A stretch of 64,000 bases of DNA from Polyangia bacterium. Lineage in GTDB: Bacteria > Myxococcota_A > Polyangia > Palsa-1104 > JAEUJZ01. The stretch covers positions 11,844 through 75,843 of the forward strand of contig JBGANQ010000012.1 of assembly GCA_044222245.1 (NCBI GenBank), given 5' to 3'. The notes under the pieces were generated by a model that saw only the letters and a list, made by a program, of their open reading frames with translations, ran no database searches and was not told the DNA's origin. Positions 9,397 to 33,475 of the stretch are shown here, one piece after another; within the stretch, counting starts at the first letter, position 1; each line of letters opens with the position of its first letter. Both the position numbers and the translations under genes were made by a program.

Positions 9397-9578
9397 CTGC
9401 CTCCCCCTGAACCGGAGCGACCGCTGAGTCGGCTCGGCGCAGTGCCGCCATCGGTCGTCGAGCTCGCGCCTTGCCCGCGGCCCGGCAAACCATGTAAGCT
9501 TGCGCCCCCCTCCTTTGTTTAAAGTAGCACCTATTCGGCACACCTTCTAGCAGGTAACCTGCGCCCAAAGGAGTGGGC

Positions 9579-10706
9579 ATGGACAAAGTCGAGTTGCCGC
9601 CCGGCCGCAAGGTCGTGGTGGCGGAGTTCGCCGAAGATCCGGAAGCCGCAATCGAGCATCAGGTGGCCCTTGCCGCGCTTGCACCGCCCGATCCGGCGAC
9701 CCTTGGCCCGCGCGATGTGATCATCGAAGTCAAGAGCGCCTCGGTCGGCTGGGTCGATCTGCTCATGACCAGTGGCCAGTACCAGCACATGCCGTCCCCG
9801 CCCTATACACCCGGGCTTGAGTACGCGGGCGTTGTCGCCTGGGCCGGAGCCGAGGTGCCGCCGGCGACGCTGCCCCTTGGCAGCGCGGTGTATGTAGATG
9901 GGCTGCTCGCCGGGCCGCGCTCGCTCGGCGCCTACCAGGCGTACGGCGGCTGGGCGAGCTACGCGGTGGCGCCCCTTGAGGCCGTCCGGCCGCTGCCCGC
10001 GGGCCTGTCGTTCGATGAGGGCTGCAACCTGCTTGGCAGCTACGAGACCGCCTACCACTGCCTGGTCACCTGCGGCAAGCTGCAGCCCGGCGAGACCGTG
10101 CTCATTCACGGAGCCTCGGGCGCGACGGGCCTGGCGGCGGTGCACCTGGCCAAGCTGCTCGGCGCGACCGTCATCGCGACCGGGCGCCGACCCGAGAAGC
10201 TGGAGGTGGTGCGCGCGCAGGGGGCGGATCATGTGCTCCTCTGCCCGAGCCAGGACGGCGCCGCCGGCGGGCGCCGCTTGCGCGACGACGTCAAGGCCCT
10301 CACCGGCGGGACCGGCGTGGACGTGGTCTATGACGGGGTGGGCGGCGACATCACGGTCGAGAGCCTGCGCTGCCTGCGGTTCGGCGGCCGCCTGCTCATC
10401 GTCGGCTGGGCCGCCACTCCCAACGTCGCGCGCGGCAAGGGCCAGCGCGGCGCCCCCAACGCCAACCAGCTGCCGACCAACTTGCTCATGATGAAGGCGC
10501 TGACCGTGCAGGGCTGCCCCACCGTGCTTGCCACGCTGCACGACCCGAGCCTGCGCCCGCCGCGGCTTCAGCAGATCCTCGGCTGGGTCGCCGCGGGCAA
10601 GCTGCGCCCGTATGTCTCACAGGTGTTTCCGCTCGCTGAGTTCAAGCAGGCGATGCGGGCGAAGTGGCGCGGGGAGGTGATCGGGGGCTGCGTCCTGCGG
10701 CCCTGA
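9579..10706 (+). CDS. NADPH:quinone oxidoreductase / zinc-type alcohol dehydrogenase superfamily (MDR)
   Basis: ATG 9579 lies behind AAAGGAG. PYTPGLEYAGVV, the Rossmann motif VLIHGASGATGLAAVHLAKLLGA and ...RLLIVGWA are typical of the quinone oxidoreductase family. Confidence 0.9.
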   Translation: MDKVELPPGRKVVVAEFAEDPEAAIEHQVALAALAPPDPATLGPRDVIIEVKSASVGWVDLLMTSGQYQHMPSPPYTPGLEYAGVVAWAGAEVPPATLPLGSAVYVDGLLAGPRSLGAYQAYGGWASYAVAPLEAVRPLPAGLSFDEGCNLLGSYETAYHCLVTCGKLQPGETVLIHGASGATGLAAVHLAKLLGATVIATGRRPEKLEVVRAQGADHVLLCPSQDGAAGGRRLRDDVKALTGGTGVDVVYDGVGGDITVESLRCLRFGGRLLIVGWAATPNVARGKGQRGAPNANQLPTNLLMMKALTVQGCPTVLATLHDPSLRPPRLQQILGWVAAGKLRPYVSQVFPLAEFKQAMRAKWRGEVIGGCVLRP

Positions 10707-19266: not shown

Positions 19267-19268
19267 CT
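19262..19268. repeat. Left copy of the 7-bp direct repeat TGCGGCT at the kinase-gene breakpoint
   Basis: The context gttcTGCGGCTaaatg is confirmed by the track translation ..DQDVLRLNVTIERKP. Identical heptamers occur at 25782-25788 and 32739-32745. Confidence 0.8.
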
Positions 19269-19390
19269 AAATGTAACGATCGAGAGAAAACCCTGAGATC
19301 ACGTTCCGCGGCGGGGCAAAGTGCATGCAAATCACGGCGTAGGAACTTTGTTGCGAGCGGGCCGGCGGCCAGCGAAAAGGTCTGCGATGG

Positions 19391-19718
19391 CTAGCGTGAG
19401 GATCGCGCGACGAACGCGACCATCGCGACGTTGAGGAGCGGGTAGGCCAGCGCGGAGGCGAAGTCGGTGGTGTTGACGAGGTTGAGGGTCACGCGCAGCG
19501 GCTGCCCCTGCGGGCTGTTGGGGTCTCCGAGCAGGCTCGCGACCTCGGCCACCGAGCGCGCCAGCTCGAAGCGCAGGATCAATCTCTGCAGCGCCGCCAG
19601 AGGCAGGGCCTGGCTGCGCGCACCCTGGACGCCCATCAGCGCGCCGAGAATCAGGGCAGCAGCGCGGCGAGCAGGACGAGCCCGGCCGGGCTCCACAGCG
19701 GCGTGGATTGTCGGGGCA
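19391..19718 (-). pseudogene. Small membrane-protein gene with an apparent frame break
   Basis: ATG 19718 behind GGAG encodes MPRQSTPLWSPAGLVLLAALLP, then hits TGA. The track ORF 19391..19696 continues in another frame with ..LILGALMGVQG...LAYPLLNVAMVAFVARSSR. Together the two pieces read as one TM-containing protein. Confidence 0.35.
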
Positions 19719-19743
19719 TGGGGGCTCCGTGGGGTCGCAGACT

Positions 19744-20808
19744 TTAGGGCGACAGGACCTCGACCGCCGCTCCAGTGGCCACCACGAGCTGGGTGGCACT
19801 GACTGCCAGGCCGCGCGGCGTGCCGCTAAGGGCAGTCCGCCCAAGGACCCGGAACGTGTCGAGCTGCACCTTGACCAGCTGCGGCGAAGGGCTGCTGCCG
19901 ACTACGTAGGCGGTGGTCCCGGTGGCCGCGACGTGCACCGGTATCACGCCCAGGGCGGCGGCCGAGATGCTGCGCACGATGGGGCTGGTCGCCGGGTTGT
20001 TATCCAGGCGGGTCAAGTCAATGGCCGCCATGCCGTCGGGGTGAGCGGCGACGAGCAGGCTCTGCCCGGGGACGACGGCGCTCTGCACGGCGAAGTTTGC
20101 CGGGGCGGCGCTGCCAGGCGAGCTGAGCACGCGGCTGCTGCCGCTCACCAGCGAGACGCGGTCCAGCGTCGCCCCGGTCGCCATATTGAGCACTGTGATG
20201 CCGTAGGTGTTGCCATCGAAATCGGTCGCCACGTAGGCCCGGGTGCCGTCATCGCTCAGGGTCACATCGGGCTGGCCGGTGCCGAGGTCGCGGGTGAAGC
20301 TCCGGGTGAGCGTAGCGCCGGTGAGCGAGCCGGCGGTGAGCAGCCCCGTGCCACCGGAGACCACGAAACGGCCGCCGCCCGTTGCGATGCCCGAGAAGGG
20401 GCCGACCGGGACGCGCAGGGCGGTCGCGGCGAAGCTAGGGCTTGTCGGGGTGGCGAACGACAGGACATTCAGCGAGCCACTGCCGCCCTGGTTGGAGAAG
20501 TCGGGCCGCGCGCCCGGCGCTACCGCGTCCAGCACGTACACAGTGCTCCCCGCGACCGCGACATCGTGCGCGCGAATCGTATAGGAGACCGCGCTCCCGG
20601 TCTTGAGGTCCAGGACCCCAAGCGAGCTGCCGCGCGCGATATACGCCGTGGAGCCGCTGAGCGCCACGTTGGTGGCGCCCGGAAAGCTGTACGTGCTGGT
20701 AAGCGCCGAAGTGATGTCATCGACGTAGTCGGGCGCAGAGGGATCCGTGGCGGAGCCGCAGCCAAGAACCGGCAGCATGAGGAAACCGAGCCATTTCAAC
20801 GTTTGCAT
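19744..20808 (-). CDS. Lipoprotein, beta-propeller-like repeats (hypothetical)
   Basis: ATG 20808 lies behind TAGGAGG. The lipobox is LMLPVLGCGS. Repeated beta-strand units are present (TAYIARGSSLGVLDL; TVYVLDA; RAYVATDFDGN; TAYVVGS). Confidence 0.8.
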   Translation of the reverse strand: MQTLKWLGFLMLPVLGCGSATDPSAPDYVDDITSALTSTYSFPGATNVALSGSTAYIARGSSLGVLDLKTGSAVSYTIRAHDVAVAGSTVYVLDAVAPGARPDFSNQGGSGSLNVLSFATPTSPSFAATALRVPVGPFSGIATGGGRFVVSGGTGLLTAGSLTGATLTRSFTRDLGTGQPDVTLSDDGTRAYVATDFDGNTYGITVLNMATGATLDRVSLVSGSSRVLSSPGSAAPANFAVQSAVVPGQSLLVAAHPDGMAAIDLTRLDNNPATSPIVRSISAAALGVIPVHVAATGTTAYVVGSSPSPQLVKVQLDTFRVLGRTALSGTPRGLAVSATQLVVATGAAVEVLSP

Positions 20809-20962
20809 GAAGACCTCCTAAAGGAACTCGATGGGTAGGACTCGCGCCAAGGCGCGCGTGCCGCTTTATCACGACTGCGGTCACCCAAGGTGCTTGCAGC
20901 GCGCGCATTGGGGGAAAATTTCGCCTCAGCCGGCCGGCGCGATCGCCTATGCTGCCACTCCA

Positions 20963-21976
20963 ATGCTCACTTCAGCATCTACATTATCTGGCCTACTCGC
21001 TGCCGTCTGCGGGGAGCCGGCGGCCCATCGGCTGCTTGCTGTGGTGCGCGTAGACTCGCGGCTTCTCGAAAATAACTCAGCGGTGGTCAGCCGGGCCGAG
21101 CTCGCCCAGGCCATGAACTTGCTCCTCTTTGATGCGCTGCTCGGCGGCGTGCCCGAAGCCGAGCGCTACGTCCGCGAGGTGGCGGCGGCCGGTGGCCAGG
21201 TGGTGTTCGATCATGGAGCGCTGCGCACCGTCCTTGCGCCGAGCTGCGGCGCGCTCCCTCCGGGCGAGGCGGCGTTTACCCGCTTTCTCCGACCGCTCGG
21301 CTTTCGCTGCACCGGCACCTATCCTCTCACTCGGCTGCAGATGACCGGCCGCGCCTATACTCACGCCGACTTTCCCCAAGACATCGCCCAGTACTTTGTC
21401 AGCGAGCTCCATCCCGAGGCCTTCTCGCCGCCCTTCCAGGCCGCGGTCGCGCGGGTTGTGGCGAGCTCGATCGATCCGCTAGCGCCCGCCGATATCACCC
21501 GCATCGAGCGCCTGGGCCGTGATCACTTTCTGCCGCTCGCGCAGGCGGTCGAGCTCCTGCCCCGGCTCGTGCGCTGCTTCGGCCGTCACCACGAGCTCCC
21601 GGCCGCCGTCGACTATGAGACCCTGCTTGCCGAGTCGGCCGAGATGGCGTGGATCAGCACCGAAGGCAATGCCTTCAACCACGCGACCGACAGGGTGCCC
21701 GACGTCCAGGCGCTGGCCGAGGCGCTGCGGGCGCGCGGCTATCCGATTAAAGACTCGGTCGAGACTTCGAGCAGCGGGCGCGTCCGCCAGACCGCCCTGC
21801 GCGCCGCCATGGTGCGGCGGCCGCTAGAGGGGTCGCCGCCGCGGGAGGTGCCCGGCTCGTTTTATGAGTTCATCTCACGCGATAGCTATACCGATGAAAC
21901 GGGGCAGCGCCAGCTGGATCTGGCCTTCGACGCCGGCAACGCCACCGGCATCTTCAAGATGACCGTCGCGCCGTAA
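20963..21976 (+). CDS. DUF1338 family (HglS/YdcJ-like 2-oxoadipate dioxygenase/decarboxylase)
   Basis: I trimmed to ATG 20963. VFDHGALRTV, YFVSELHPEAF, NAFNHATDRV and FYEFISR match conserved DUF1338 motifs. Confidence 0.8.
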   Translation: MLTSASTLSGLLAAVCGEPAAHRLLAVVRVDSRLLENNSAVVSRAELAQAMNLLLFDALLGGVPEAERYVREVAAAGGQVVFDHGALRTVLAPSCGALPPGEAAFTRFLRPLGFRCTGTYPLTRLQMTGRAYTHADFPQDIAQYFVSELHPEAFSPPFQAAVARVVASSIDPLAPADITRIERLGRDHFLPLAQAVELLPRLVRCFGRHHELPAAVDYETLLAESAEMAWISTEGNAFNHATDRVPDVQALAEALRARGYPIKDSVETSSSGRVRQTALRAAMVRRPLEGSPPREVPGSFYEFISRDSYTDETGQRQLDLAFDAGNATGIFKMTVAP

Positions 21977-22038
21977 CCGGATCGGATGGCCGTCGCGCTG
22001 TAGCCGGGTCGCTGGCGCCGGCCAGGCGGCGACTGCGC

Positions 22039-23007
22039 TCAGGCGCCGGGCTCGGTCTCCGGTTGCGGCCCGCGCGGGCGCGCGCCCCGGCGGACGCCAA
22101 ACGAGAACAGGTCGGGGCGGTGGTAGTGCCCAGCGACATCCAGCGTCATGCTTTCCTCGCGCACACGGGTCAGATCAAGCTCGGCCACTATAAGCTCCGG
22201 GCGCTCCCACACCGGCTCGACAACATAACTCCCATCGGGCGCGATGACGGCGCTGCCGCCGCGCATCAACCAGGACTCGCGACTCTTGACCCGATCGGGA
22301 TGCGGCTCGAGCCCGGGGGGCAGCGCCGCGGCGCGCAGTAATGAGCCGACGGCGAGCACGTAGCAGCGGCTCTCGAAGGCGTAGTGCCGGCTGGCCAGCT
22401 GGTGTCGCTCGTGGACGGTGGGCCATACAGCAACGTGCACATCTTCCCCAGACTCATGCAGGGCGTGGCGAGCCAGCGGCATCCAGTGCTCCCAGCAGAT
22501 GAGGCCCCCCACCCGCACGCCGTCGGCCTCGACGACCCGCAGCCCGTCGGCATCACCGGGCCCCCAGACCAGTCGCTCGGTGTAGGTCGGCATCAGCTTG
22601 CGGTGGTGATTTATGAGCTCGCCGCTGCGGCCGATGGTCAAAAGTGAGTTGTACAGAGTGCCCCGGCCCGGTCCCGCGCCGACGCGCTCGACGACTCCGA
22701 TCACCAGCGTCGCCTGGACCGACCGCGCGACCTCGCGCAGCTCCAGGCCCGACTCGCCGTTTACCTCGATGCTGTTTGCCGCCATCTGCGCGTACGCTGC
22801 CTTGACCGGGGGGTGATCCCACAGCGCGGCGTCGCGACAACAGTCGAGCCATGCGGGGTAGCCGGGAATCCAGGTCTCGGGAAAAGCGATGAGGCGGGCG
22901 CCGCGCGCGGCGGCCTCGGAGGCGTACTTTTGCGTCTGCGCAAGCGCATCGCTGAGGGTGGACGCGACCTCGCCCTGCACCAGGGCAACGGTGATCCGGC
23001 TGCTCAT
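22039..23007 (-). CDS. Nitrilase / carbon-nitrogen hydrolase family
   Basis: I trimmed to ATG 23007 (MSSRITVALVQ). The catalytic triad context is AFPETWIPGYP (Glu), HHRKLMPT (Lys) and GGLICWEHWMP (Cys). Confidence 0.9.
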   Translation of the reverse strand: MSSRITVALVQGEVASTLSDALAQTQKYASEAAARGARLIAFPETWIPGYPAWLDCCRDAALWDHPPVKAAYAQMAANSIEVNGESGLELREVARSVQATLVIGVVERVGAGPGRGTLYNSLLTIGRSGELINHHRKLMPTYTERLVWGPGDADGLRVVEADGVRVGGLICWEHWMPLARHALHESGEDVHVAVWPTVHERHQLASRHYAFESRCYVLAVGSLLRAAALPPGLEPHPDRVKSRESWLMRGGSAVIAPDGSYVVEPVWERPELIVAELDLTRVREESMTLDVAGHYHRPDLFSFGVRRGARPRGPQPETEPGA

Positions 23008-23131
23008 TTCCGGACAATGCGCTTGCGAGCGGCCCAGTGTCAACGGCTCGCTGCCGCCGGCGCCGAGGCCCGGCCAGCCCGCGGCCCCGCGTGGAGCATT
23101 CAGCCAGCCGAGCGTGTAGGATTGCAGGGTC

Positions 23132-24415
23132 ATGACCACTGAGCGCAAGATTCCCGATGGGCGGCTTGGCCGACTGAGAAGACTGGCCGGGCTGGGGGCG
23201 CGGACCGGAGCGAGCCTGCTGCTCAACCGGGACGCTGGGGCAGCGGCGGCGCAGCAGGCGGCCGAGGTCCTGGGTACCCTGCGCGGGCTGGCCGCCAAGG
23301 TCGGCCAGATGGCCAGCTACATCGACGGCATGGTCCCCGACTCGCACCGCGAGGCGTATCAGACCGCCCTGCGCGGGCTGCGGGCCGCGGCGCCGACCTC
23401 GTCCCCGCAGCAGATCCGCCAGACCGTGGAAACAGAGCTGGCGGCGCCCCTGGACCAGCGGTTCTGCGAGTGGGATGACACACCGCTGGCCAGCGCCTCG
23501 ATCGGGCAGGTCCACCGGGCGCGCCTGCTCGACGGCCGCGAGGTGGCGGTCAAGGTCCAGCACCCCGGCATCGCCGCCGCGGTGGCAAGTGATCTGGAAA
23601 ACGCCGGGATGATCCAAGGTCTGGTCGGGATGCTCGGTCCGCGCCAGCTCAACTCCAAGGCCGTCTTCGCCGAGGTCAAGCAGCGCTTCGAGGAGGAGCT
23701 TGACTACACCCTGGAAGCAGAGCGGCAGATGTCCTTTCGCCGCCTGCACAGCGGCGACCCGCACATAGACATTCCCGAGGTGATCCCCGCCTGCTCTGCG
23801 CAGCGCGTCCTCACCACGCTGCTGGCGCGCGGGGCGAGCCTGGAAGAGGCCGCCGCGGCGCCGCGGGCCGAGCGCCGCCAGCACGCCGAGACGCTGTGGC
23901 GCTTCGTCTTCAAGGGGAACCTCGTAGGCGGCATGTTCAACGCCGACCCACATCCGGGAAACTACCTGTTCCAGCCGGCGGGGCGGATCGTCTTTCTCGA
24001 CTTCGGCTGCGTCCAGCCGATCGCCGGCGAACACCTGCAGCAGTCGCGCCGGGCTCACAAGGCGGCGCTGCGCGGCGACCAGGCGGCGTTTACCGCGGCG
24101 ATGACCCAGCTTTTGGGGACCAGCGGCGGCGCTTACGAGCGGGCCATGCTCGCCTACCTGCGCCGCTGCTTCGAGCCGCTGTTCAGCTCTCCCTACTGCA
24201 TAAATGCCGGCTACGTAAAGAGTCTGGTCGATGCCACGATGGACATGAAGCGCCTGGTCCTGACCAAGGACAGCGGCTTTGTCTCACCGCAAGAGGGCCT
24301 GCTGTTCATGAACCGCCTGCAGTTCGGGTTTTATTCCGTGCTCTCGCGCCTGGATGTCGAGGCGGACTATGCAGCCGTCGAGAACCGCTTCCTCGGCGAG
24401 GCCGGCCTGGCCTAG
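23132..24415 (+). CDS. ABC1/UbiB (AarF) atypical kinase family protein
   Basis: PLASASIGQVHRARLLDGREVAVKVQHPGI, EELDYTLEA and FNADPHPGNYLF..IVFLDFG are ABC1-family signatures. Confidence 0.9.
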   Translation: MTTERKIPDGRLGRLRRLAGLGARTGASLLLNRDAGAAAAQQAAEVLGTLRGLAAKVGQMASYIDGMVPDSHREAYQTALRGLRAAAPTSSPQQIRQTVETELAAPLDQRFCEWDDTPLASASIGQVHRARLLDGREVAVKVQHPGIAAAVASDLENAGMIQGLVGMLGPRQLNSKAVFAEVKQRFEEELDYTLEAERQMSFRRLHSGDPHIDIPEVIPACSAQRVLTTLLARGASLEEAAAAPRAERRQHAETLWRFVFKGNLVGGMFNADPHPGNYLFQPAGRIVFLDFGCVQPIAGEHLQQSRRAHKAALRGDQAAFTAAMTQLLGTSGGAYERAMLAYLRRCFEPLFSSPYCINAGYVKSLVDATMDMKRLVLTKDSGFVSPQEGLLFMNRLQFGFYSVLSRLDVEADYAAVENRFLGEAGLA

Positions 24416-24535
24416 CAGGCTGCGGCAAAGCGTAGCGAGCGGCCCGAGCTCGGGTTCGGGCGCGCGGAGCAGCCTGTTGGCTGTGAGCACGGCCGGGCCC
24501 GAAATCGGGTCGCGCAGTAGTTTTGCCTCAGCCTG

Positions 24536-25156
24536 CTAAGGGCGCGCGGTGGCCGCCGCGTACAGGGCGCGCAGGGCATCGCGCAGCTCGTCGTTTTCGA
24601 CCCGGGCGATGGTCGTCATCACCTCGAGGTCCGGCTTGGGCACCGGCCGCTTCTTGGTGGGAGCGCGGCGGGCCTTGGCGGTCCAGGCCTTGTAGTCCGG
24701 CAGATCTTTGATATTGCCGACGGCGAACTTGAAGCGCTTGATCTCTTTTATCGGGGAGGCCTTGGCGCGCTCGTAGGAGTCGCGATACTTTTCGGCGATG
24801 TGGCGCAGCTCCTCGTTGACCTGGGCGAGGACGATATCCTTGACATAGTGAAAGGTCGCCACCGTCGCTGAGCTGTCCATGCGCAGGTGCAGCGTGTCCT
24901 CCCACAGCTTCTCCGCGCGGACCATCGGCTCCAGGTGCGGCGCGCACTGGTGGCAGACCGCGGCGAAGACCTGCTGCGCCAGGCAGCCGCTCAGCTGCTC
25001 CCAGCTCTTGAGTCGCACCGCCGCCGCGACGATGAGCGCCCAGCCGCGAAACGGCCGGGCGAGCGGCCGCTTGTACGACCGCCGCCGGATCACCGTGGCC
25101 CCCGGCGGAATCAGCGGCTTCTCAGCTTGCGGAGCGGCAGGTGGCTTGGGCGGCAT
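24536..25156 (-). CDS. Hypothetical protein (possibly DUF721/DciA-like; tentative)
   Basis: 206-aa track ORF with coding-like composition, 17 nt downstream of the preceding same-strand gene. WEQLSG..LAQQ...LHLRMDSSATVATFHYVKDIVLAQVNEEL loosely resembles DUF721. Confidence 0.55.
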   Translation of the reverse strand: MPPKPPAAPQAEKPLIPPGATVIRRRSYKRPLARPFRGWALIVAAAVRLKSWEQLSGCLAQQVFAAVCHQCAPHLEPMVRAEKLWEDTLHLRMDSSATVATFHYVKDIVLAQVNEELRHIAEKYRDSYERAKASPIKEIKRFKFAVGNIKDLPDYKAWTAKARRAPTKKRPVPKPDLEVMTTIARVENDELRDALRALYAAATARP

Positions 25157-25173
25157 GGCGGTAGACCCGCATG

Positions 25174-25644
25174 CTAGGACAGCTCGGGTCGCGGAGCCAA
25201 CAAATGCGTCGCCATAAGGACCCCTACCCGCCCGACGACCTGCTGGAGCAGGCTGAGCTCGCGCCGGATAAACGGCAGGGCCGCATCAGCGATGTCCAGG
25301 TGCCGCCACGCCTGGGCGAGCTCGGCCGGCGCAAACGAACAGATAAGCGGATTGTACCAGTTGAGCGCCGTGACCACGCCCTGGGTCGCTGGGCTGGCGC
25401 TGACAATCGCCACCCGCATCGGCCGGCCGCAGAGGATCTTGTTGATCTCGGCGCGCTGGCTCAGGTTGGGCGAGCCACCATCGGTGAACACGATGCGACG
25501 GCCTTTGCTCGGATCGCTCGGGTAGCGCACGATGAGCGCCAGGAGCTGCTGCGAGTACTCGCGCCAGCCTTCCGCATCCGGCGGCTCGGCCGTGTGCAGC
25601 GAGATCAGCAGATCTTCCCACGCCCTGGTAGCCATCGTCCTCAT
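25174..25644 (-). CDS. Hypothetical protein (STAS/SpoIIAA-like fold suspected)
   Basis: 156-aa track ORF with good third-position GC bias. The motif ...RVAIVSASPATQGVVTALNWYNPLICSFAP... is typical of small myxobacterial STAS-like proteins. The call is low-specificity. Confidence 0.55.
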   Translation of the reverse strand: MRTMATRAWEDLLISLHTAEPPDAEGWREYSQQLLALIVRYPSDPSKGRRIVFTDGGSPNLSQRAEINKILCGRPMRVAIVSASPATQGVVTALNWYNPLICSFAPAELAQAWRHLDIADAALPFIRRELSLLQQVVGRVGVLMATHLLAPRPELS

Positions 25645-25663
25645 GTGCTGATCAAATCAGCAC
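25645..25663. promoter_or_regulatory. Perfect palindrome GTGCTGAT-caa-ATCAGCAC abutting the start codon of the 25174..25644 gene (candidate operator)
   Basis: The 8-bp arms are at 25645-25652 and 25656-25663, in a locally AT-richer stretch immediately 5' of the ATG (25644, minus strand). Confidence 0.25.
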
Positions 25664-25779
25664 TTATTGTACACCAAAACAACGACAGCACCGCCGCACT
25701 TGGCCCAGGCCAAGCAGCCCTTCCCGAACCTTCCCGCGCGCTGCCGGGTGCCCCGCCGCACAGAAGGGCCGGTCGGCCT

Positions 25780-25795
25780 CATGCGGCTTGAGGTC
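25780..25795. repeat. 16-nt exact copy (CATGCGGCTTGAGGTC) of the right kinase/insert junction, located mid-insert
   Basis: It is identical to 32737-32752. Both copies are confirmed by track translations (..GRPHAA* / MRSSAG.. here; ..GDRMRLEVLVHD.. at the junction). It contains the TGCGGCT heptamer at 25782-25788. Confidence 0.8.
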
Positions 25796-25989
25796 GAGCG
25801 CCGGGCGTCCCGATGCTGGCCGATACACCAGCTGCGGTGAAGAGCTGCTTGCGGAAGGATTACCCCAGGTGCCAGGGTCCGGCAGGACCCGGCGCTGCCT
25901 GCGCGAAAGGGGTGCCGGACGGCACAGGATCTTCTTGGATAAGTTGAGCCGAGCCGCCGAGAGCGGCTGGAGAGAGCGACCTGCGGCGC

Positions 25990-26121
25990 CTACTTGCCCT
26001 TCTTGCCCGACCCGGCCGCCGGGGCCGGAGTCGTCTTGGCCTTGTCGGCTTTCTTCTGATCCTTATTTGCCGTGTCTTGCTTCTTGGACTTGTCCTTGGC
26101 CTTTGGAGACTTGTCGCCCAT
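25990..26121 (-). CDS. Possible 43-aa lysine-rich micro-protein (below the track size cut-off)
   Basis: ATG 26121 to TAG 25990 encodes MGDKSPKAKDKSKKQDTANKDQKKADKAKTTPAPAAGSGKKGK. A weak AGGCGG precedes it. It lies in an otherwise empty 590-bp gap. Confidence 0.35.
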   Translation of the reverse strand: MGDKSPKAKDKSKKQDTANKDQKKADKAKTTPAPAAGSGKKGK

Positions 26122-26240
26122 GAGATCACCGCCTAAGGTTGAAGTGTCCAATCATCATCGGCTTCCCTTTGGGGAATGTCCAGTCGAAGCGCACCGCGCG
26201 CACCTTTTCCGGACCGGCCTGTCCCGCCGGCGGCGGCGCT

Positions 26241-28154
26241 TCAGCGGGTGCAGCTGCCCTTTTCGAAGTGCTGGAAATCCTTGAGGTTGCGAAACTCGCC
26301 GCCCCACTTCCAGCCGAGCTCCTTGAACTTGCGCGTCACCGGATGCTCCGCCGTCAGGGTCCCCGGTACGCTGCGGTCATAGACCGCTCCCGGCGGCAGG
26401 ACGACGCGCGCCGCCCCCTTCCCCCTGGCATAGGGATTCAGGCCGGGGTTTAAGTCGATGGCCAGGCCGCAGGCGTGCGCCGACAGCTTGCGGCTGCCGG
26501 TCTGGGCGCGGAAGTTGAACCCCGAGGTGTTGTTGGCCGCCATCGACTTGAGGTCGTCGGGGCGGCCATCGCGGACGAAGGCCTGGTGGGCGATCGGAAT
26601 CACCGACTCGACGGGGAAGCGGGTCTGGCGGATCACCGCAAACACGGCGCGGGCATCATCGGCCAGCGAGCTGTCGACCACCAGCTGTCCCTTGTGCAGT
26701 CGGCCGTCGCGGGCAAAGTAAGAGACCTCGACCAGCCGCTGCCGCCCGACGATGGCCGGCGGGCACTCTTTGGCCAGGTTGGCGCGCACCGCCTGCTCGA
26801 CCGTCATCTCGCTGTCCACGACCTCGACAGCGGTCGGCTCTGCCGGGGGCGGACCGCCGGGCGCCGGCTTGCCAGCAGCAGCGGCGCTCGCCAGAGCCGC
26901 GGCCAGAAAGCGGCGATCGGCGGCGCGCGCCTCGGCGCTGCGGTTCTGCGGCCGCAGCACCATCACCCCTTGGATGTGGGCGCCGACGAGATAGTCGTAG
27001 ACCGGCCGCAGCCGGTCGGGGCTGTAGCCATAGTAGGACTTGCCATCAATGCGGATGTGGCGCCCGCGCGGATCAGCGACCCAGCTGGTGGCGGCGGCGA
27101 CCCCCAGCTGCTCGCGCCGCGGGTCGGAAAGATAGTAGATCCCCGCCGCGATCGACGGCTCGCCCGGCTTGGCCTGCGGGCGAAAGACGTAGTCCCGCGT
27201 CGCGTGCACCATGTAGATCTCACCACCCCGGTTGATGGCGATGGCGGCGTGCCCGAACATCAGCTCGTCGCTCGGCACCGGGCCCGGCACCACGCGCGAG
27301 AACAGGAGGATGTCGCCAGTCTTGATCCGGCTGCGATCCATCTGGGTGAACGTGGCCCGGCTGAGCAGCTGCAGGGTCAGCACCGGACCGCGCTGCAGCT
27401 TGGGCACGATGACGTGGCGGCCGGGGTCCTCCTCGGGGTTGCGCCGGTGCGGGGTGAGCCGGCTGCGGAACTGGGTGCGCGGCGCGGCGCCGGCCACCTC
27501 GGCGGTCACGTCGGCGACATAGCCCTGCTTGAGCGCATTTTCGAGGAAGATGTCCTCGGTGAAATCGAGGATGTTGCCGCCCACCGGCTCGCTGGAAAGG
27601 CCGCGGGTCTCGCTCTGCGCGTAGCGGATCTTGCGCAGCGAGTGCACAAACTCCTCGAAGCTGCCGGCGCTGGTGAGGGCCAGCATGTAGATCGCAAGCC
27701 CCGTGCAGCCAAAGGTCTGCAGCCGCACCCGCAGCGTGCCGGGGGGAGGAATCGGCAGCTGCGACTCATAGGCAAACGGCGTCCGCTTGAAGCGCTCGAG
27801 CAGAAAAGCGAGTCGCTCGTTGGCATCGGGAAACTCCGCCTGGGCGCGCGCCAGCAGGGCGGTCAGCTGCTCGATGTTGAGCGCGCCGAGCTCTAGCTGC
27901 AGCTTGATGTCGCCAAAGGCCACCACGCCCTGGGTCGCGCGCGGATCGAGCCGCGATGCCGGCGCGCTCGGAGCCGGCGCCTCCGCGGGCGGGCGCAGTC
28001 CCGGTTCCGCGAGCTTGGCCGGGGCCGCAGCCACGGCGCCCAGCGTCAAGGGCAGCGCCGGCGCGGTCGCCATCGCCTCATCGGCGCGCGAGTCGGCGCA
28101 GCCTGCCAAGAGCAGCACCAGCAGCACCGCGCGCAGCGCCGCCGGCGCGGTCAC
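26241..28154 (-). CDS. Lipoprotein with DUF1460-like (amidase-like) N-domain and C-terminal LAS/M15 metallopeptidase domain (cell-wall hydrolase)
   Basis: The lipobox is LLVLLLAGC. FGCTGLAIYMLAL...IRY is DUF1460-like. The C-terminal SAHACGLAIDLNP ... DFQHFEKG matches the M15 SxHxxGxAxD and HFE motifs. The GTG start overlaps the upstream stop (GTGA, 28151-28154). Confidence 0.8.
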   Translation of the reverse strand: MTAPAALRAVLLVLLLAGCADSRADEAMATAPALPLTLGAVAAAPAKLAEPGLRPPAEAPAPSAPASRLDPRATQGVVAFGDIKLQLELGALNIEQLTALLARAQAEFPDANERLAFLLERFKRTPFAYESQLPIPPPGTLRVRLQTFGCTGLAIYMLALTSAGSFEEFVHSLRKIRYAQSETRGLSSEPVGGNILDFTEDIFLENALKQGYVADVTAEVAGAAPRTQFRSRLTPHRRNPEEDPGRHVIVPKLQRGPVLTLQLLSRATFTQMDRSRIKTGDILLFSRVVPGPVPSDELMFGHAAIAINRGGEIYMVHATRDYVFRPQAKPGEPSIAAGIYYLSDPRREQLGVAAATSWVADPRGRHIRIDGKSYYGYSPDRLRPVYDYLVGAHIQGVMVLRPQNRSAEARAADRRFLAAALASAAAAGKPAPGGPPPAEPTAVEVVDSEMTVEQAVRANLAKECPPAIVGRQRLVEVSYFARDGRLHKGQLVVDSSLADDARAVFAVIRQTRFPVESVIPIAHQAFVRDGRPDDLKSMAANNTSGFNFRAQTGSRKLSAHACGLAIDLNPGLNPYARGKGAARVVLPPGAVYDRSVPGTLTAEHPVTRKFKELGWKWGGEFRNLKDFQHFEKGSCTR

Positions 28155-29224
28155 GGCGCGCCCTCGCCGTCGTCAAGGTCCTGGGCCACTGCGTCATGGA
28201 ACGCCCGCCGCAGCGCGTGCATGTGGGCCCCGCGCCGGCGGCTTGGGTGGACGCGATTGGTCAGCAGCACCGCGAAGCGCTGCGCGCCCGGCTCGATCCA
28301 CAGGCTGGTGCCGGTAAAGCCGGTGTGACCAAAGCCGGCCGCCGTCGCCCGGGCACCAGCGAACGAGTCCTGGCCCTTGAGCAGCCAGCCGAGCCCGCGC
28401 CGCACCGCGCCGCTGTCGACGTGCTGCTCGGTCGTCGCGCGCAGCACCTCTTCCCGGCCGAGCCGCCGGTCCCAGCTCAGCCAGGCCTGGGCGTAGGTAG
28501 CAAGATCCCCGGCGGTCCCAAACAGCCCGGCGTGCCCGGCGACGCCGTCGAGGCGAAAGGCGTTCTCATCGTGCACCACGCCCTCCAGCAGCTGGTTGCG
28601 CCAGCCGCAGTCCTCGGTCGCCGCCACCGGCGGCGCGGCCCCGGGCTCGGCTGCGGGCAGTGGCCGATAGCCGGTCGCCTGCATCCCGAGCGGGCCGAAG
28701 ACATTCTGGGCGGCGAATGCGTCCAGGCGCTGCCGGGCGACTCGCTCGACAATCGCCCCAAGCACGATGAAGCCCAGGTCGCTGTAGACCACGGCGCCGC
28801 GCTGCCCGAGCGGGGTCTGCAGGGCGTTGGCCAGCGCGGTGAGCCGATCGCTGGTCCAGGCAAACAGCGGCCGCCAGCTCGGCAGGCCCGAGGTGTGGGT
28901 GAGGAGCTCACGAATCGGCACCTCGGCCAGGCTCGGACTCTGGAACCAGCCGGCATTCTCTATGTAGCGCCCGACCGGATCATCCAGCTGAAGCTCGCCA
29001 TCGCTTAAAAGCCGCAGCACGCAGGGCAGAGTGGCCACGACTTTGGTGAGCGAGGCCAGATCGTAGCGGGTGTCGGCGGTGGCGGCGGGTCCGTCGTACT
29101 TGCGCACCCCCACCACCAGGGGCTCGCAGCGGCGGCCGGAAGCTCCGGCGACGGCGACGGCGCCGGGGATCTCGCCGCTGCACACCGCCTCGTCGAGCAC
29201 GATCCTGGTGGCTGCCATCTTCAT
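28151..29224 (-). CDS. Serine hydrolase, class-C beta-lactamase/PBP4-like family
   Basis: SxxK motif in YDLASLTKVVATLP; LLTHTSGLP; the later HTGFTGTS corresponds to the KTG-like box. Confidence 0.9.
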   Translation of the reverse strand: MKMAATRIVLDEAVCSGEIPGAVAVAGASGRRCEPLVVGVRKYDGPAATADTRYDLASLTKVVATLPCVLRLLSDGELQLDDPVGRYIENAGWFQSPSLAEVPIRELLTHTSGLPSWRPLFAWTSDRLTALANALQTPLGQRGAVVYSDLGFIVLGAIVERVARQRLDAFAAQNVFGPLGMQATGYRPLPAAEPGAAPPVAATEDCGWRNQLLEGVVHDENAFRLDGVAGHAGLFGTAGDLATYAQAWLSWDRRLGREEVLRATTEQHVDSGAVRRGLGWLLKGQDSFAGARATAAGFGHTGFTGTSLWIEPGAQRFAVLLTNRVHPSRRRGAHMHALRRAFHDAVAQDLDDGEGAP

Positions 29225-29322
29225 GCGGTCTCTGCTCGCCCCTGGCTCCCCTTTTCAGGGTATCGCCTTGGGCGCAAAAGTGTCAATGTTCAGCCTAGAT
29301 CAGATTCCGGCTCGGCTCTGGC

Positions 29323-29727
29323 TCAGAATAGGAGTCCCTTTAGCATGAGCAGGAACAGGATCACCTGCACGCCCCAGCACAGGGCGCGGACCAGCACCAG
29401 CGGCTGGGTCGTTCCGATGAGGTGGGCGGTGCTCTGACCCAGGCGGGCATAAAGGACGAGCGGCGCCAGCGGCGCCACCACGGCGTCTTTGCCGAGCGCT
29501 GCGGCGGCCAGGACCAGCACGGCGAAGATCGGCAGGTTCTCCAGGCAGTTTGCATGGGCATCCGAGACCCGCTTGGCAAACGCCACATCGCCGGTGTCGG
29601 TCTTGCCGCGCGGCCAGTTGTTTATCGGCGCACCTTGGAGTATCCGGACCCCGCGATACCCGAGCACCAGGATCACCATCAGCAGAGTCCAAGCCGTAAA
29701 CCCAAGCAGCGCCGTCATCGAGGTCAT
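29323..29727 (-). CDS. MAPEG-family membrane protein
   Basis: 134 aa with four hydrophobic segments. RVSDAHANCLENLPIF matches the MAPEG R..AH.N..E..P motif. Confidence 0.85.
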   Translation of the reverse strand: MTSMTALLGFTAWTLLMVILVLGYRGVRILQGAPINNWPRGKTDTGDVAFAKRVSDAHANCLENLPIFAVLVLAAAALGKDAVVAPLAPLVLYARLGQSTAHLIGTTQPLVLVRALCWGVQVILFLLMLKGLLF

Positions 29728-29928
29728 CGCATCCTCCTTGCTTGATAGACCAAGGGTGGCCAGCTTTGGCCACAGGTTGGAAGGTCGCGCCTAGCCTACC
29801 TTAACAGCGGCCCCAGTGGCCCAGGCTTCTATGCAGTTTGTTGTTGAGCGCATGCGCGGCGCCGCTTGGTGGCCGCGGCGCGCCCCTTTGCGCAGCGGCT
29901 GCGGGCTGGCGGCGAGCCGGGTAGTCGG

Positions 29929-30837
29929 CTAGTAGTACTGCGGCACGTAGAACTGCTCGGAGCGCGGCGGTCGCACGTAGCTGCCCGCCGGCTTGCGCGG
30001 CGTCAGCTCGACCGCCTCCGGGGGCAGGTCTTCATAGGGGACCTTGACCAGGATGTGCCGCATGCAGTTTAGCCGGGCGCGCTCCTTATCATCGGCCTCC
30101 ACCGTGAACCAGGGCGCCTCCGGGATGTTGGTGTGAAGGAGCATCTTGTCCTTGGCCTTGGAGTACTCGACCCACTTGTCGCGGGACTGCAGGTCCATCG
30201 GACTTAGCTTCCAGCGCTTCATCGGGTCCTGCAGCCGGGCGCGGAAGCGCTTCTCCTGCTCTTCATCGCTCACCGAGAACCAGTACTTGAGCAGCACAAT
30301 TCCCGAGCGGACGAGCATGCCCTCAAACTCCGGACAAGCGCGCATGAACTCGGTGTACTCCGCCTCCGTACAGAAGCCCATCACATGCTCGACCCCGGCG
30401 CGGTTATACCAGCTGCGGTCGAAGATCACGATCTCTCCGGCCGATGGCAGGTGCTCGACGTAGCGCTGGAAATACCACTGGGTCTTTTCGCGATCCGAAG
30501 GAGTTCCCAGCGCCACCACGCGGCAGCCGCGCGGGTTGAGTCCCTCGGTGATCCGCTTGATCATCCCGCCCTTGCCGGCGGCGTCGCGGCCTTCGAAGAT
30601 GAGGACGACCTTGAGTCCCTTGTGCTTGACCCAGTACTGGAGCTTGACGAGCTCGGTCTGGAGGCGCTGCAGCTCCTTTTCATACTCGCGCTTGGGCATG
30701 GGCGGGCGCTGCTGGGCCGTGAGCTGTTCCCGCGCGCGTTTCTTTTCGCGCTTGAGCTCCTTCTTGCTGGGCTTCTTCTGCGCGTCGGCTGTATTCCCAC
30801 TCGGCGAAGGTGCCTCGCTCCGGTTTCCGTCTGCCAT
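29929..30837 (-). CDS. ppk2: Polyphosphate kinase 2 (PPK2, single-domain)
   Basis: I trimmed to ATG 30837 behind GGAGGAG. VVLIFEGRDAAGKGG (Walker A), FDRSWYNRAGVE and WKLSPMDL are PPK2 hallmarks. Confidence 0.92.
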   Translation of the reverse strand: MADGNRSEAPSPSGNTADAQKKPSKKELKREKKRAREQLTAQQRPPMPKREYEKELQRLQTELVKLQYWVKHKGLKVVLIFEGRDAAGKGGMIKRITEGLNPRGCRVVALGTPSDREKTQWYFQRYVEHLPSAGEIVIFDRSWYNRAGVEHVMGFCTEAEYTEFMRACPEFEGMLVRSGIVLLKYWFSVSDEEQEKRFRARLQDPMKRWKLSPMDLQSRDKWVEYSKAKDKMLLHTNIPEAPWFTVEADDKERARLNCMRHILVKVPYEDLPPEAVELTPRKPAGSYVRPPRSEQFYVPQYY

Positions 30838-31007
30838 CAGCTCCTCCAGTACCTGTTGGGCAGCCGGGTAGCTAAGGCTGCCGATGAGATATTTTATCCC
30901 AAGCAGGAGGGGGACCCATAGAAGAATCATCCAGCCGCCGAGCCCGCGGCAGCGGCCCAGCGGTCGCCGCCAAGCGCCGCCAGCGCCGCAAGCGCCGCGC
31001 CGGAGCG

Positions 31008-32648
31008 TCAGCCGGGAATTGGGTTGATGGTCTGCAGATTGAGGCCGCCGGGGTAGCAGTAGGAGATCGCGTAGCCATAGCCATAGCCGAGGAGACCAAA
31101 GGGCTTGTCGGCGCTGATGCGGTGATTGCCCGGCATGACGCGGAGGATGGCGCGACCGAGCACGCCGCTGCCCAGGGGGCGCAGCGGCTCGCTGACCGCC
31201 GTGCCATCCAGGGTCAGCGCGGCGTCTAGCGGCGCCGTCACGTTCACGTAGTTATAGGCGTAGGTCTGCGGCACATAGAAGATGTAGTCGCTGCGATACT
31301 GCTCGACCGGAGCCAGCGGCGACATGTTGGCGTCGCCCAGGCACTGAACGTTGTTGCCGGTGTACGGACAGCCGGCGGGCGCCCCTTGGGGAAAGTCACT
31401 GGTCTTGAAGGTGCCGCTGAGGTTGCCCCAGGCCGGCAGGTACTGCAGCGCCAGGATCGGCTGGTCGGCGGTGATCTCGAAGTCGCCATCGGTGTCAAAC
31501 TCGAAGAACTGGCCGCGCCGCAGCGTCTGCACCGCCGGCAGCCCAGCGCCGCCGGTGAAGGTCACCTGGGTGGAGTCCACGCTGGCCAGGACCCGGTAGT
31601 AGTCGCGGTCAGTCGAGTTGCGCTGCTTGAACTTGCTGGCCGCGTAGTGCTTGCCCCAGGTCTGCAGCGGGAACATCTGCACTCCCAGGTGGTCGCCGCC
31701 GAGCGCGCTCGACGGCACGGTCACAAGGCCGGCGCCGCCAAAGACCACGACGTTGGCGCTCGCCTTGACCACGGCGCCCGAGATGTCCTCCAGAGAGTTG
31801 GCCTGCGTGACCTCCAGCACCTCCATCCGGTTGAGCGTCCGCTGCAGCGTCCCGCCGGCGGCCAGCGCCGGGATGCCGGCCCCCGCCTGGGTCGCCACCG
31901 GCACCGTGAGCTGCACCTGGGTGTTGTCAGCGAGTGCGAGCACCGCGACAAACCCCTGCCCCTGCGGCACCGAGGTCATGATCTTGGCGTTATACGTATA
32001 GCCCATGACGAAGTAGTCCTTGGCCATCACCTGCTCGGGCAATAGCAGCGTCGCCGAGCCGGTGACCACCTGGGCGGCGTCGATGGGGTGGAACAGATAG
32101 GCGGCCACCGGCGCCGACGACTTCAGGTGGAAGCCCTTGCGCGCCTGCTCGGTGCGGGTGAGCTTGTTGCGGCCGTGATCGAGGCGGAACACCACCAGAC
32201 CGCCCGGCGGCGCGGTCTGGGTGCCGATGACGCCGCTCACATCCTCCAGCGTCACCACCGCCTCCATGGTGCTGGAGGTGTTGGAGGCGACGATGCCGAG
32301 CTCGCCGCTCGACGAGGTCGACCACAGGTTGACCGGGTAGAAGCTGCAGCCCGTGCTGCCGGCCGGCAGGTCGTCGCAGGGGCCGACACAGCGCCCGCCG
32401 CGACAGACCTGCCCATCGGTCCCCTGGCAGCGCTGCTGGTTGGTCCAGCGGCCGCCCTGGCAGGCCTGGACGGTGCTCTGATCCGCGCTGCAGCGCAGGC
32501 TGTCGGCAAAGCAGGCGGGCGCGCCAAGGTCGGGCAGCACGCTGCCGGGCGAGTCGATGTTTCCATCCCGCCCGGGGCTGCACGAGGACGGGGCAACAGC
32601 GCACAGGAAGCTGGCCAGGACAATCCATCGCGGTCGCGCGTTCAGCAT
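31008..32648 (-). CDS. Secreted Cys-rich protein with IgGFc-binding-protein-N-terminal-like beta domain
   Basis: I trimmed to ATG 32648 (MLNARPRWIVLASFLCAVAPSSC). The N-terminus is Cys-rich (CSADQSTVQACQGGRWTNQQRCQG..CRGGRCVGPC). The C-terminal ..FGLLGYGYGYAISYCYPGGLNL is typical of this domain. Confidence 0.8.
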   Translation of the reverse strand: MLNARPRWIVLASFLCAVAPSSCSPGRDGNIDSPGSVLPDLGAPACFADSLRCSADQSTVQACQGGRWTNQQRCQGTDGQVCRGGRCVGPCDDLPAGSTGCSFYPVNLWSTSSSGELGIVASNTSSTMEAVVTLEDVSGVIGTQTAPPGGLVVFRLDHGRNKLTRTEQARKGFHLKSSAPVAAYLFHPIDAAQVVTGSATLLLPEQVMAKDYFVMGYTYNAKIMTSVPQGQGFVAVLALADNTQVQLTVPVATQAGAGIPALAAGGTLQRTLNRMEVLEVTQANSLEDISGAVVKASANVVVFGGAGLVTVPSSALGGDHLGVQMFPLQTWGKHYAASKFKQRNSTDRDYYRVLASVDSTQVTFTGGAGLPAVQTLRRGQFFEFDTDGDFEITADQPILALQYLPAWGNLSGTFKTSDFPQGAPAGCPYTGNNVQCLGDANMSPLAPVEQYRSDYIFYVPQTYAYNYVNVTAPLDAALTLDGTAVSEPLRPLGSGVLGRAILRVMPGNHRISADKPFGLLGYGYGYAISYCYPGGLNLQTINPIPG

Positions 32649-33139
32649 GCGGCATCGTATGGCAAATTCGCCCCCGTTGAGCAAGCCCAAGCCCCGCTGC
32701 GGATCGAATGCGGCGGCGGCTCTCTCGGGGCGACCGCATGCGGCTTGAGGTCCTTGTGCATGACGCCGGCCGCGTGCACTCCCTCAAGGACGCGGCAGAG
32801 CGCGTGGGCCACTTGCAGCGCCGCGCCGAGGTCAAGCCGCCCGCGCTCGGCCAGCACCCGATCGAGCGAGCGGAGCCCGGGGTCCTCTAAGATGAGCGCC
32901 GCGCTGCCATCGGCCTGCACAAGACCCCGCGTCCGCACCACGCCGGGCAGCGGCGCCAGCTTCTCCAGGATCTGGTGCTCGTGAATGAGCCGCCCGACGA
33001 TGCGCAGGCTGGGCGCGGCGGCGACCGGCAGCTTGACGACCAGCGGCTCGGCGGCGCTCGGACAAGTGGCCCGCCGGATGCGGGTCTCGGGTCCCTCGTA
33101 GACCGTCTCCCCTAGCGTGTACCCTTCTAGCTGCCCCAT
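32642..33139 (-). pseudogene. 5' fragment of the interrupted Ser/Thr kinase gene (subdomains I-VIb), reading through into insert DNA
   Basis: MGQLEGYTLGETVYEGPETRIRRA...PLVVKL...LIHEHQILEKL...ALILEDPGLRSL...AHALCRVLEGVHAAGVMHKDLKP ends at codon 32741-32743. After that come 33 non-kinase residues and TGA. Confidence 0.85.
32737..32752. repeat. Right junction of the kinase interruption: CA + TGCGGCT (32739-32745) + TGAGGTC
   Basis: The heptamer is identical to 19262-19268. The full 16-mer is identical to 25780-25795. The junction sits in the centre of the 10-bp palindrome CCGCATGCGG (32734-32743). Confidence 0.8.
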
Positions 33140-33475
33140 ATCGCTGTCCGTTCCTTCAGGGAATTAGGAATTTAGACCATAACATGTGAGGGTCGGCAGC
33201 CAAACTGCGCTGCCAGGCGACCGCGCGCACCTACCTTGCCCCTACGTGTAGGAATCCGGCTGTCGCACACAGGCGCACAGGAGTCAGCAGGCCGCGATCC
33301 AGGCTGCCGTCGCCCAGGCAGGCGTCGTGACGCTGAAAAGCAGGCACGTACACACTCCCCTGCAAAATTACCTTGGTGGTATTCTAATGCTTCCAATTTG
33401 CGGCCGCGCCCTGGGTCCCCATCCCAGATCGCCGCCGCTTAGGCAAAGTTCCATCTGGACCTGGGAAGGAAACGC

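Follow-up and report, generated by a model that had tools for sequence, protein, structure and literature searches.

A third junction copy within a split kinase gene of a Polyangia bacterium, probably the middle att site of two islands inserted in succession

Introduction

Mobile islands can accumulate in tandem at a single chromosomal attachment (att) site, attB. This kind of accretion is known from ICESt1 and ICESt3, integrative and conjugative elements (ICEs) of Streptococcus thermophilus, together with cis-mobilizable elements (CIMEs), and from the tandem tRNA-gene islands in Islander/TIGER; in the streptococcal ICE/CIME accretions, the internal site is named attI. A second group of described elements interrupts genes and restores them upon excision, including skin in sigK, SPbeta in spsM, the elements in nifD, fdxN, and hupL of Anabaena, and phi10403S in comK, for which the terms "active lysogeny" and "regulated gene integrity" are used. 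Here, we describe a locus with features of both groups in 64,000 nucleotides from a Polyangia bacterium (GenBank assembly GCA_044222245.1, contig JBGANQ010000012.1, positions 11,844 to 75,843); this whole stretch is referred to below as the window. A gene for a PknK-like Ser/Thr kinase is split there by an insert which carries, near its middle, a 16-nt match to its own right boundary. We consider it likely that the insert consists of two islands, A and B, lying head to tail in one attB formed by the catalytic-loop codons of the kinase gene. The mechanism is ordinary, and the target is unusual.

Like an ICE/CIME accretion, the locus has three direct att copies (attL, attI, and attR, here called L, M, and R) and independently varying modules, and these att-bounded modules lack an integrase and would be movable only with help. 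Unlike in the streptococcal case, the target lies inside a protein-coding gene which is left unrepaired, both modules are without an integrase, and no conjugation or phage genes are present. With the gene-interrupting elements, the locus shares an insert inside an open reading frame (ORF), precise removal which restores this ORF, junctions of the site-specific recombinase type, and short direct repeats (16 bp in the case of hupL). Those elements encode an active recombinase of their own, and experiments have demonstrated that they excise, whereas in the window and in the related contig L204 (described below) the recombinase is absent or dead, and the case is known from sequence.

Results

The kinase gene is split by 13,477 nt, made up of a 13,470-nt insert and one copy of the heptamer TGCGGCT. 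When 14338-19268 and 32746-33139 are joined on the minus strand, the result is an uninterrupted ORF which reads ...GVMHKDLKPQNILVDE... / ...GVMHKDLKPQNILVDEACSRVVLVDFGIAS... across the joint; equivalently, in silico deletion of 19269-32745 rebuilds a perfect 1774-aa kinase ORF. The left heptamer occupies 19262-19268, and the insert begins at 19269 (a correction of its coordinate). The C-terminal kinase fragment extends from (K)PQNILVDE to the stop codon, with a GTG at 19230 as its first in-frame start, and the K-P codons lie within the duplicated heptamer, while the N-terminal fragment today reads through into segment B as a 165-aa ORF. The insert is flanked by core genes (glycogen phosphorylase, phosphoglucomutase, FtsH, FolP, and CdaA). 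The parts of the locus, with their assignments in terms of att sites being the predicted ones, are as follows.

14338-19268, minus strand: kinase C-terminal fragment (Ser/Thr kinase-AAA-GAF-PP2C), an open 1630-aa ORF which joins 32746-33139 in frame
32746-33139, minus strand: kinase N-terminal fragment, residues 1-131, ending ...GVMHKDL
19255-19275, minus strand: junction L, ACATTTA-AGCCGCA-GAACATC (element A P side, 7-bp overlap, kinase)
25775-25795, minus strand: M, candidate internal att site, GACCTCA-AGCCGCA-TGAGGCC (B P-side half-site, overlap, A P'-side half-site)
32732-32752, minus strand: junction R, GACCTCA-AGCCGCA-TGCGGTC (kinase D-L-K codons, overlap, B P' half-site)
19269-25781, minus strand: segment A, an integrase-less island of 6.5 kb (genes by Pfam)
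25789-32738, minus strand: segment B, an integrase-less island of 6.95 kb (genes by Pfam, MAPEG by annotation)

An earlier sequence-only reading of this stretch had claimed that the 16-mer at M is identical to the one at R, and the exact match was verified: CATGCGGCTTGAGGTC is present exactly twice in the window, at 25780-25795 (M) and 32737-32752 (R), with no further copy on either strand when up to two mismatches were allowed. The left flanks, which that reading had called loosely similar, extend the likeness to 22 of 25 nt (25772-25796 versus 32729-32753). M was also said to lie in a gap without a kinase remnant; neither local DNA alignment nor translation in three frames revealed one, and the similarity is confined to these 25 nt. 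Independent assemblies cover both sites. Contig L202 spans M (99.7% identical, window 26858->24477), L201 extends ~70 nt beyond M, and L001 spans R (99.95% identical, window 32789->28736) and carries it at its positions 38-58; because of this coverage, the M and R junctions are not assembly artefacts.

Heptamers at L (19262-68), M (25782-88), and R (32739-45) share one orientation and delimit two modules. Written in kinase orientation as 7-7-7, R reads GACCTCA-AGCCGCA-TGCGGTC and M reads GACCTCA-AGCCGCA-TGAGGCC, and the target rebuilt from the outer junctions, attB, is GACCTCA-AGCCGCA-GAACATC. M forms a perfect CCTCA-N7-TGAGG dyad and R the same type of dyad with one mismatch (arms 6/7 inverted). 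Two inverted half-sites around a spacer of ~7 bp are the core layout of tyrosine recombinases, both lambda-type and Xer-type. The predicted attP of B, GACCTCA-AGCCGCA-TGCGGTC, and that of A as deduced from relatives, TCCTCA-AGCCGCA-TGAGGA, are each dyad-symmetric with a 7-bp spacer, and joining the two ends of A in the relatives (TGAGGA... ...TCCTCA) would form a perfect symmetric core. Window L has just 7 nt in common with M and R, and its element-side half-site (ACATTTA) reads as a decayed form of the TCCTCA of relatives.

This anatomy accounts for the length of the repeat. M equals R over 16 nt because the two sites have in common the overlap, the GACCTCA half-site, and the first bases, TG, of related P' half-sites; the likeness of their left flanks is that of the related P' half-sites TGCGGTCGCC and TGAGGCCGAC. 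The GACCTCA would come from the target kinase in R and from B's own attP in M. The sequence-only reading had identified GACCTCA at R as kinase coding sequence. That the copy at M is captured coding sequence is not supported; it is better read as a core half-site of element B that mimics the target. The M sites of relatives have ACCTCA or TCCTCA in place of a complete GACCTCA.

We found one close relative, the contig L002 of a metagenome-assembled genome (MAG; 85.5% nucleotide identity), in a genome scan with the rebuilt kinase, which beyond L002 returned mostly ~32%-identical cyanobacterial PknK-like genes. The L002 kinase begins at the same joint, homology reaches ~46 nt into the insert, and its L site, TCCTCA-AGCCGCA-GAATATC, retains the half-site which the window has lost. 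A second contig, L204, is 90% identical to L002 and extends further beyond M; it ends exactly on the L core, ...CTCAAGCCGCA. The homologous L junction carries (T)CCTCAAGCCGCA in both (L002 4141-4157, L204 4609-4619), and M is conserved as ACCTCAAGCCGCATGAGGA in L002 (42-60) and as TCCTCAAGCCGCATGAGGA in L204 (797-815). M is kept over 17-18 nt in these two contigs, which have ~85% nucleotide identity to the window, while the adjacent non-coding DNA no longer aligns, and in both relatives L and M share 12 nt.

The gene content on the two sides of M varies independently. L002 starts 41 nt before M and continues with a homologue of the 206-aa protein gene of segment A, a gene that also adjoins M in L204, and between this homologue and L the relatives carry different cargo (AtuA-like, lactonase-like). 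On the B side there is an integrase gene in L204 and an M15 peptidase gene in the window. The L204 integrase gene, of the tyrosine recombinase type, lies directly upstream of M and has both a frameshift and an internal deletion (HSLRGLWATLAV...LGHH...RKHY; ...VCTHSLRGLWATLAVGSGVASHAVAASLGHHLFAVTRKHY...); it scores 30.1 bits against PF00589 (cut-off 27.1) and lacks the region of the first Arg. It is followed by a tandem AATCGATCCGCAATCGATCCG at 730-750, with the core exactly 68 nt from the start of the repeat. M is an element end with an integrase beside it. The window retains a candidate counterpart of this arm repeat, and related motifs lie near both ends of the insert.

25845-25861, minus strand: likely P-arm repeat remnant AATCCTTCCGCAAGCAG, 68 nt upstream of the M core, a spacing as in the integrase-bearing relatives
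19302-19310, plus strand: CGTTCCGCG motif, 34 nt inside the left insert end, inverted relative to its right-end partner
32698-32706, minus strand: CGATCCGCA motif, 33 nt inside the right insert end, matching the unit ATCGATCCGCA found beside integrases of the L204-type clade

By gapless count, the first 13 nt of the window arm match AATCGATCCGCAA of L204 at 11 positions. The 9-mer CGWTCCGCR is not enriched overall (6 copies in the window, 8.4 expected), and two of the six copies sit 33-34 nt inside L and R in mirror orientation, a placement which alone is suggestive; these end motifs may be accessory or arm-type sites.

From the dyad symmetry, the conservation of M, and the integrase beside it in L204, we conclude that the 16-mer at M is probably a middle att site, lying between two old, integrase-less islands which a tyrosine recombinase put in successively. 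Of the proposals in the sequence-only reading, the two segments 19269-25781 and 25789-32738, each bounded by TGCGGCT, are favored by this evidence, as is a site-specific mechanism acting repeatedly at one site, given the common 7-bp overlap and the recombinase-type inverted half-sites. Its alternative of a ~7-kb unit with 16-bp att-like repeats is compatible, being the two-segment picture viewed from segment B. Neither module was found entirely alone in the relatives.

Could the insert instead be one 13.47-kb element, with M either a pseudo-att or secondary site or an attP-like leftover, and with A and B never separately mobile? Neither half in the window has an integrase, window L shares so little with M and R, and no recognisable integrase or arm repeat adjoins L in the window, L002, or L204, all of which would suit a single element. 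Yet the L204 integrase pseudogene and its P arm stop exactly at M, the usual position of an element end, the B-side content varies while the A-side gene stays conserved, and the two ends of A in relatives would join into a symmetric core. We regard a single element as unlikely.

Several observations on contigs related to this locus stand apart. The ends of five independent short-read contigs fall no more than ~80 nt from an att core (L204 at 4619, and L002, L203, L201, and L001 each at position 1); these ends fit multicopy or alternative sequence there and could equally reflect repeated kinase or arm sequence. Contig L205 (3672-4334) matches L002 at 98.6% identity across the 3' portion of the 206-aa homologue, with quite different upstream DNA (MerR, GGDEF, UPF0114) and the gene shortened to 114 aa, which could be a rearrangement or a chimeric assembly at low coverage (2.8x). 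The closest intact kinases, in L078 and L080, have 55-68% amino acid identity to the kinase domain and are not syntenic and paralogue-like; near 10380-10400 they read GACGTCAAGCC(G/C)CAAAAC (D-V-K-P-Q-N) without a CCTCA half-site and may be poor targets.

The age of the arrangement was gauged from divergence between the window and L002. Over the kinase C-terminal fragment (L002 4149-6254), 702 codons align with no gap or stop, with synonymous divergence (dS) of 0.40, nonsynonymous divergence (dN) of 0.081, and dN/dS of 0.20, and the 206-aa gene of A gives dS of 0.46 and dN/dS of 0.15. Since the dS of this cargo gene is close to that of the kinase fragment, the comparison suggests that the integrated state predates the window/L002 split. 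Although the gene is split in both genomes, purifying selection clearly acts on the orphaned C-terminal fragment. The simplest reason is probably that the AAA-GAF-PP2C part still functions by itself, from the internal GTG at 19230.

The same selection would also be expected of a programmed or reversible rearrangement, in which a clade integrase encoded in trans still excises B or A+B and thereby restores or remodels the kinase. In its favor, the C-terminal fragment has stayed open and selected since before the window/L002 split, without an indel, the M and R cores are intact, and several independent contigs break close to an att core. Against these points, the window has no integrase and the L204 copy is dead, the decayed L half-site in the window makes precise L x R excision doubtful, purifying selection is explained equally well by AAA-GAF-PP2C acting alone, and multicopy kinase and arm sequences would be expected to break contigs as well. 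We consider a still reversible state quite improbable.

A 16-nt repeat by itself is unremarkable in this window, because the window contains ~30 distinct exact direct repeats of at least 16 nt (versus 1-9 in shuffles); this one is notable for its location. The sequence-only reading had put the chance of the match at ~4e-5, a figure which holds for a word fixed beforehand and not for any 16-mer among so many repeats. We roughly estimate the luck needed to place such a repeat on a junction at the order of a few percent. The abundance of repeats could speak for a chance repeat in a GC-rich window, with the heptamer an ordinary target-site duplication or microhomology, and the 15-mer ACCTCAAGCCGCATG occurs exactly in at least 120 unrelated metagenome contigs in a metagenome scan; these matches were assessed as chance, none having a kinase-linked or M-like context. 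However, the repeat sits precisely at a junction and takes in the duplicated heptamer, M in L204 has an integrase and a homologous arm next to it, and the conservation of M in two diverged relatives inside unalignable non-coding DNA contradicts chance, which we hold to be very improbable as an explanation. The case is decided by the junction position, the dyad symmetry of the sites, and the conservation of M in relatives. No terminator was called on M, no Rfam match was obtained in 19000-33300, and no tRNA was found in the window.

The L204 integrase fragment has homologues in Haliangium, Myxococcales, and Polyangia assemblies, all small tyrosine recombinases of ~235-315 aa; in L207 and L209, the tblastn matches cover nearly the full length (231 aa). 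In the clade alignment (A2), R119, K144, H210, R213, H236, and Y246 are invariant (R...K...HxxR...H...Y). The clade has only a distant relationship to Xer proteins and to phage integrases and matches none of the curated families; relatives in viral and phage data are distant as well (36-43% in five IMG/VR contigs, 23-35% in phages). These proteins resemble the simple Xer-like tyrosine recombinases (XerA, XerH, XerC/D) in their ~300-aa size, the retained R-K-HxxR-H-Y residues, and two inverted half-sites with a 6-8-bp spacer, and XerA and XerH are the closest solved structures. Unlike Xer, they score far below the cut-offs of all curated Xer models, and their genes lie at island ends beside att sites, not at a chromosomal housekeeping locus. 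The sites do not look dif-like, with no dif model run. Compared with lambda attP, the sites likewise have a 7-bp overlap with 7-bp inverted core sites and repeated arm motifs ~68 nt off beside int, whereas the ~300-aa clade proteins show no evident arm-binding N-terminal domain. An integron cassette array was rejected: the overlap is AGCCGCA, not GTTRRRY, and the integron-integrase model gives 18-19 bits versus 265, far below its cut-off.

Around these integrases a context recurs in one orientation and in a fixed order of integrase, arm repeat, core ~68 nt on, and cut target gene.

L207/L208: intact-looking integrase, AATCGTTCCGCAATCGTTCC, then cagTCAACCCGCCAACATCATGCTG = (K)PANIMLERRVDGNLHAV; kinase fragment (K)PANIML, which starts just after the catalytic loop
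L216 (Polyangia MAG), 1632-10505: kinase N-terminal fragment ending ...VHRDIKPSN, 8.3 kb of cargo, decayed integrase, arm repeat
L079, 3374-3455: paralogous PknK-like kinase (~65% amino acid identity), cut at CTCAAGCCCCAGAAC (LKPQN), with the AACCGTTCCGCAAGCGTTCC arm 67 nt upstream
L209, 1044-1128, and L210, 739-823: integrase, AATCGATCCGCAATCGATCCG arm, 68 nt on the core CCTCATGAGCCATGAGA / CCTCATGAGCCATGAGATTCGCACGCCG, then a histidine kinase

The histidine kinase of L209/L210 begins at its H-box (SHEIRTP, MSHEIRTPMN, MSHEIRTPMNAVIGM), and among the integrases whose contig is usable, the one there is the closest, with 71-78% identity to the query and P0124. In L216, the 10-nt AGCCCAGCAA stands at both ends (2203-2212 and 10496-10505), with no recognisable kinase C-terminal fragment after the right end; the cargo comprises a trypsin-AAA protein and another of 1326 aa that has AAA_35 matches and many to WD40 beta-propellers, and gives the impression of being defence-like. 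L079 derives from the same metagenome as L001, has no integrase, and has ExbD as its next upstream gene. Its kinase looks decayed (331 aa, then a separate GAF ORF). In L206, the contig around P0139, a decayed integrase has no recognisable core or kinase adjoining it. Of the targets seen, at least four independent ones are Hanks-type kinases cut at the HRDxKPxN catalytic loop and one is a histidine kinase cut at its H-box, and the clade thus seems to hit active-site codons of two kinase superfamilies. The L204-type clade, an uncharacterised group of small tyrosine integrases in Myxococcota, appears to insert islands into the most conserved codons of signalling kinases. Literature searches turned up no description of att sites in kinase genes or kinase motifs of myxobacteria.

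This recurrence bears on template switching, which the sequence-only reading had offered as an alternative. Template switching or microhomology-mediated repair at TGCGGCT, with M a by-product at a quasi-palindrome, would draw on the short palindromes present at the junctions (CCGCATGCGG at R, CCTCA...TGAGG at M). But the window contains no donor copy of A or B elsewhere, and at least four kinases are struck at the same codons, in one orientation, with an integrase or its arm at a fixed distance, which random switching does not predict; we find this explanation unsupported and highly unlikely. A DDE-type transposon or composite element, to which the 7-bp direct duplication flanking the insert could be ascribed as a target-site duplication, is the least credible of all, since a repeat scan and reading of both ends found no terminal inverted repeats, none of the ~30 window genes scanned has a transposase domain, a third "duplication" copy lies inside the insert, and the L/M repeats measure 12 nt, not 7, in relatives.

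The remaining contents of the two modules are listed here, with strand where assigned.

Segment A
19744-20808: secreted 354-aa protein
20831-21976, plus strand: HglS-like protein
22039-23298, minus strand: nitrilase
23132-24415, plus strand: ABC1 kinase
24536-25156: conserved 206-aa protein, no assigned family
25174-25644: 156-aa protein, no assigned family
Segment B
25990-26122, minus strand: 43-aa Lys-rich ORF (MGDKSPKAKDKSKKQDTANKDQKKADKAKTTPAPAAGSGKKGK) between M and the M15 peptidase gene
26241-28154: M15 peptidase/AmiA-like protein
28151-29224: beta-lactamase-family hydrolase
29323-29727: MAPEG
29929-30930: PPK2
31008-32690: IgGFc-binding-like secreted protein

PHROGs and NCBIfam profiles gave no match to the unassigned proteins of A. 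The nitrilase and ABC1 kinase genes, taken as their longest ORFs, share ~170 nt in a head-to-head overlap; the domain of the nitrilase begins only at residue 103, and its real start is probably further downstream. In the L202 assembly the 43-aa ORF of B is annotated as a gene, a promoter-like site lies at 26182-26154, and L001 independently confirms 28736-32789 of segment B. Elsewhere in the window, a 2453-aa ORF at 38672-46033 on the minus strand, unrelated to M, has a C-terminal STAND/AAA_16-type NTPase region and a third-codon-position GC content (GC3) of 0.96, and a perfect tandem duplication with a 24-nt period (CCCGACCGTCGTCCCGGGCGCGGG...) lies at 63787-63823 near the right window end.

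Discussion

The following course of events would account for the locus. An Xer-sized tyrosine recombinase of the myxobacterial clade would recognise half-sites of the CCTCA / TGAGG type, with an attB of GAC CTC AAG CCG CAG AAC (D-L-K-P-Q-N, from the HKDLKPQN motif), and would exchange strands inside the 7-bp overlap AGCCGCA (TGCGGCT on the plus strand). A first island would enter the kinase codons and create hybrid sites, and a second, related island would then enter one of these. The overlap would then stand in direct orientation at three places, R (kinase|B), M (B|A), and L (A|kinase), and either order of arrival of A and B yields these identical three sites. Both islands were presumably mobilised by an integrase of the L204-type clade, and the integrase genes would afterwards have been lost in the window lineage and degraded in L204, while the L half-site of the window decayed. 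Site-specific recombination that is still ongoing would yield specific joints: ...CGGCGCTCGACCTCAAGCCGCATGCGGTCGCCCCGAG... for a B circle, ...CACAAGGACCTCAAGCCGCATGAGGCCGACCGG... for deletion of B, ...CACAAGGACCTCAAGCCGCAGAACATCCTGGTC... for full excision, and ...CGTTACATTTAGCCGCATGCGGTCGCC... for an A+B circle.

A number of findings weigh against this account. None of the ~30 window genes scanned with Pfam, PF00589 included, has a recombinase or transposase domain, and the L204 integrase fragment had no tblastn match in the window; the sole integrase physically beside M, in L204, is a pseudogene. The half-site at window L is not CCTCA, and the symmetry of A's attP rests on relatives, which are short metagenomic contigs throughout. 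Beyond its first 13 nt, the window arm matches L204 weakly (~46%, gapless count). No naturally empty site of the true orthologue was found, including in the genome scan with the rebuilt kinase. GC content is uniform across the window, with islands host-like in GC, and both islands carry only ordinary-looking metabolic and envelope genes.

Successive insertion of two islands explains the puzzle of the third junction in ordinary terms, as an internal att site, and defines the real ends of the islands. The integrase clade and its apparent liking for kinase active-site codons are the new details, and the mechanism is of a known kind. Myxobacteria carry many Hanks-type and histidine kinases; a single integrase could therefore find numerous landing sites in a genome, and a signalling protein would be inactivated or shortened by every insertion. 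It is a bold and improbable extension of these findings that the split kinase is a living switch, operated by trans-encoded integrases acting on L, M, and R, and that for the clade, active-site codons in Ser/Thr and histidine kinases serve as a landing pad present in many copies. If this were true, some cells would rebuild or remodel the kinase, and signalling networks in Myxococcota would be rewired. The integrase clade and its choice of targets could matter for the genome plasticity of myxobacteria and as a source of new integrase/att pairs.

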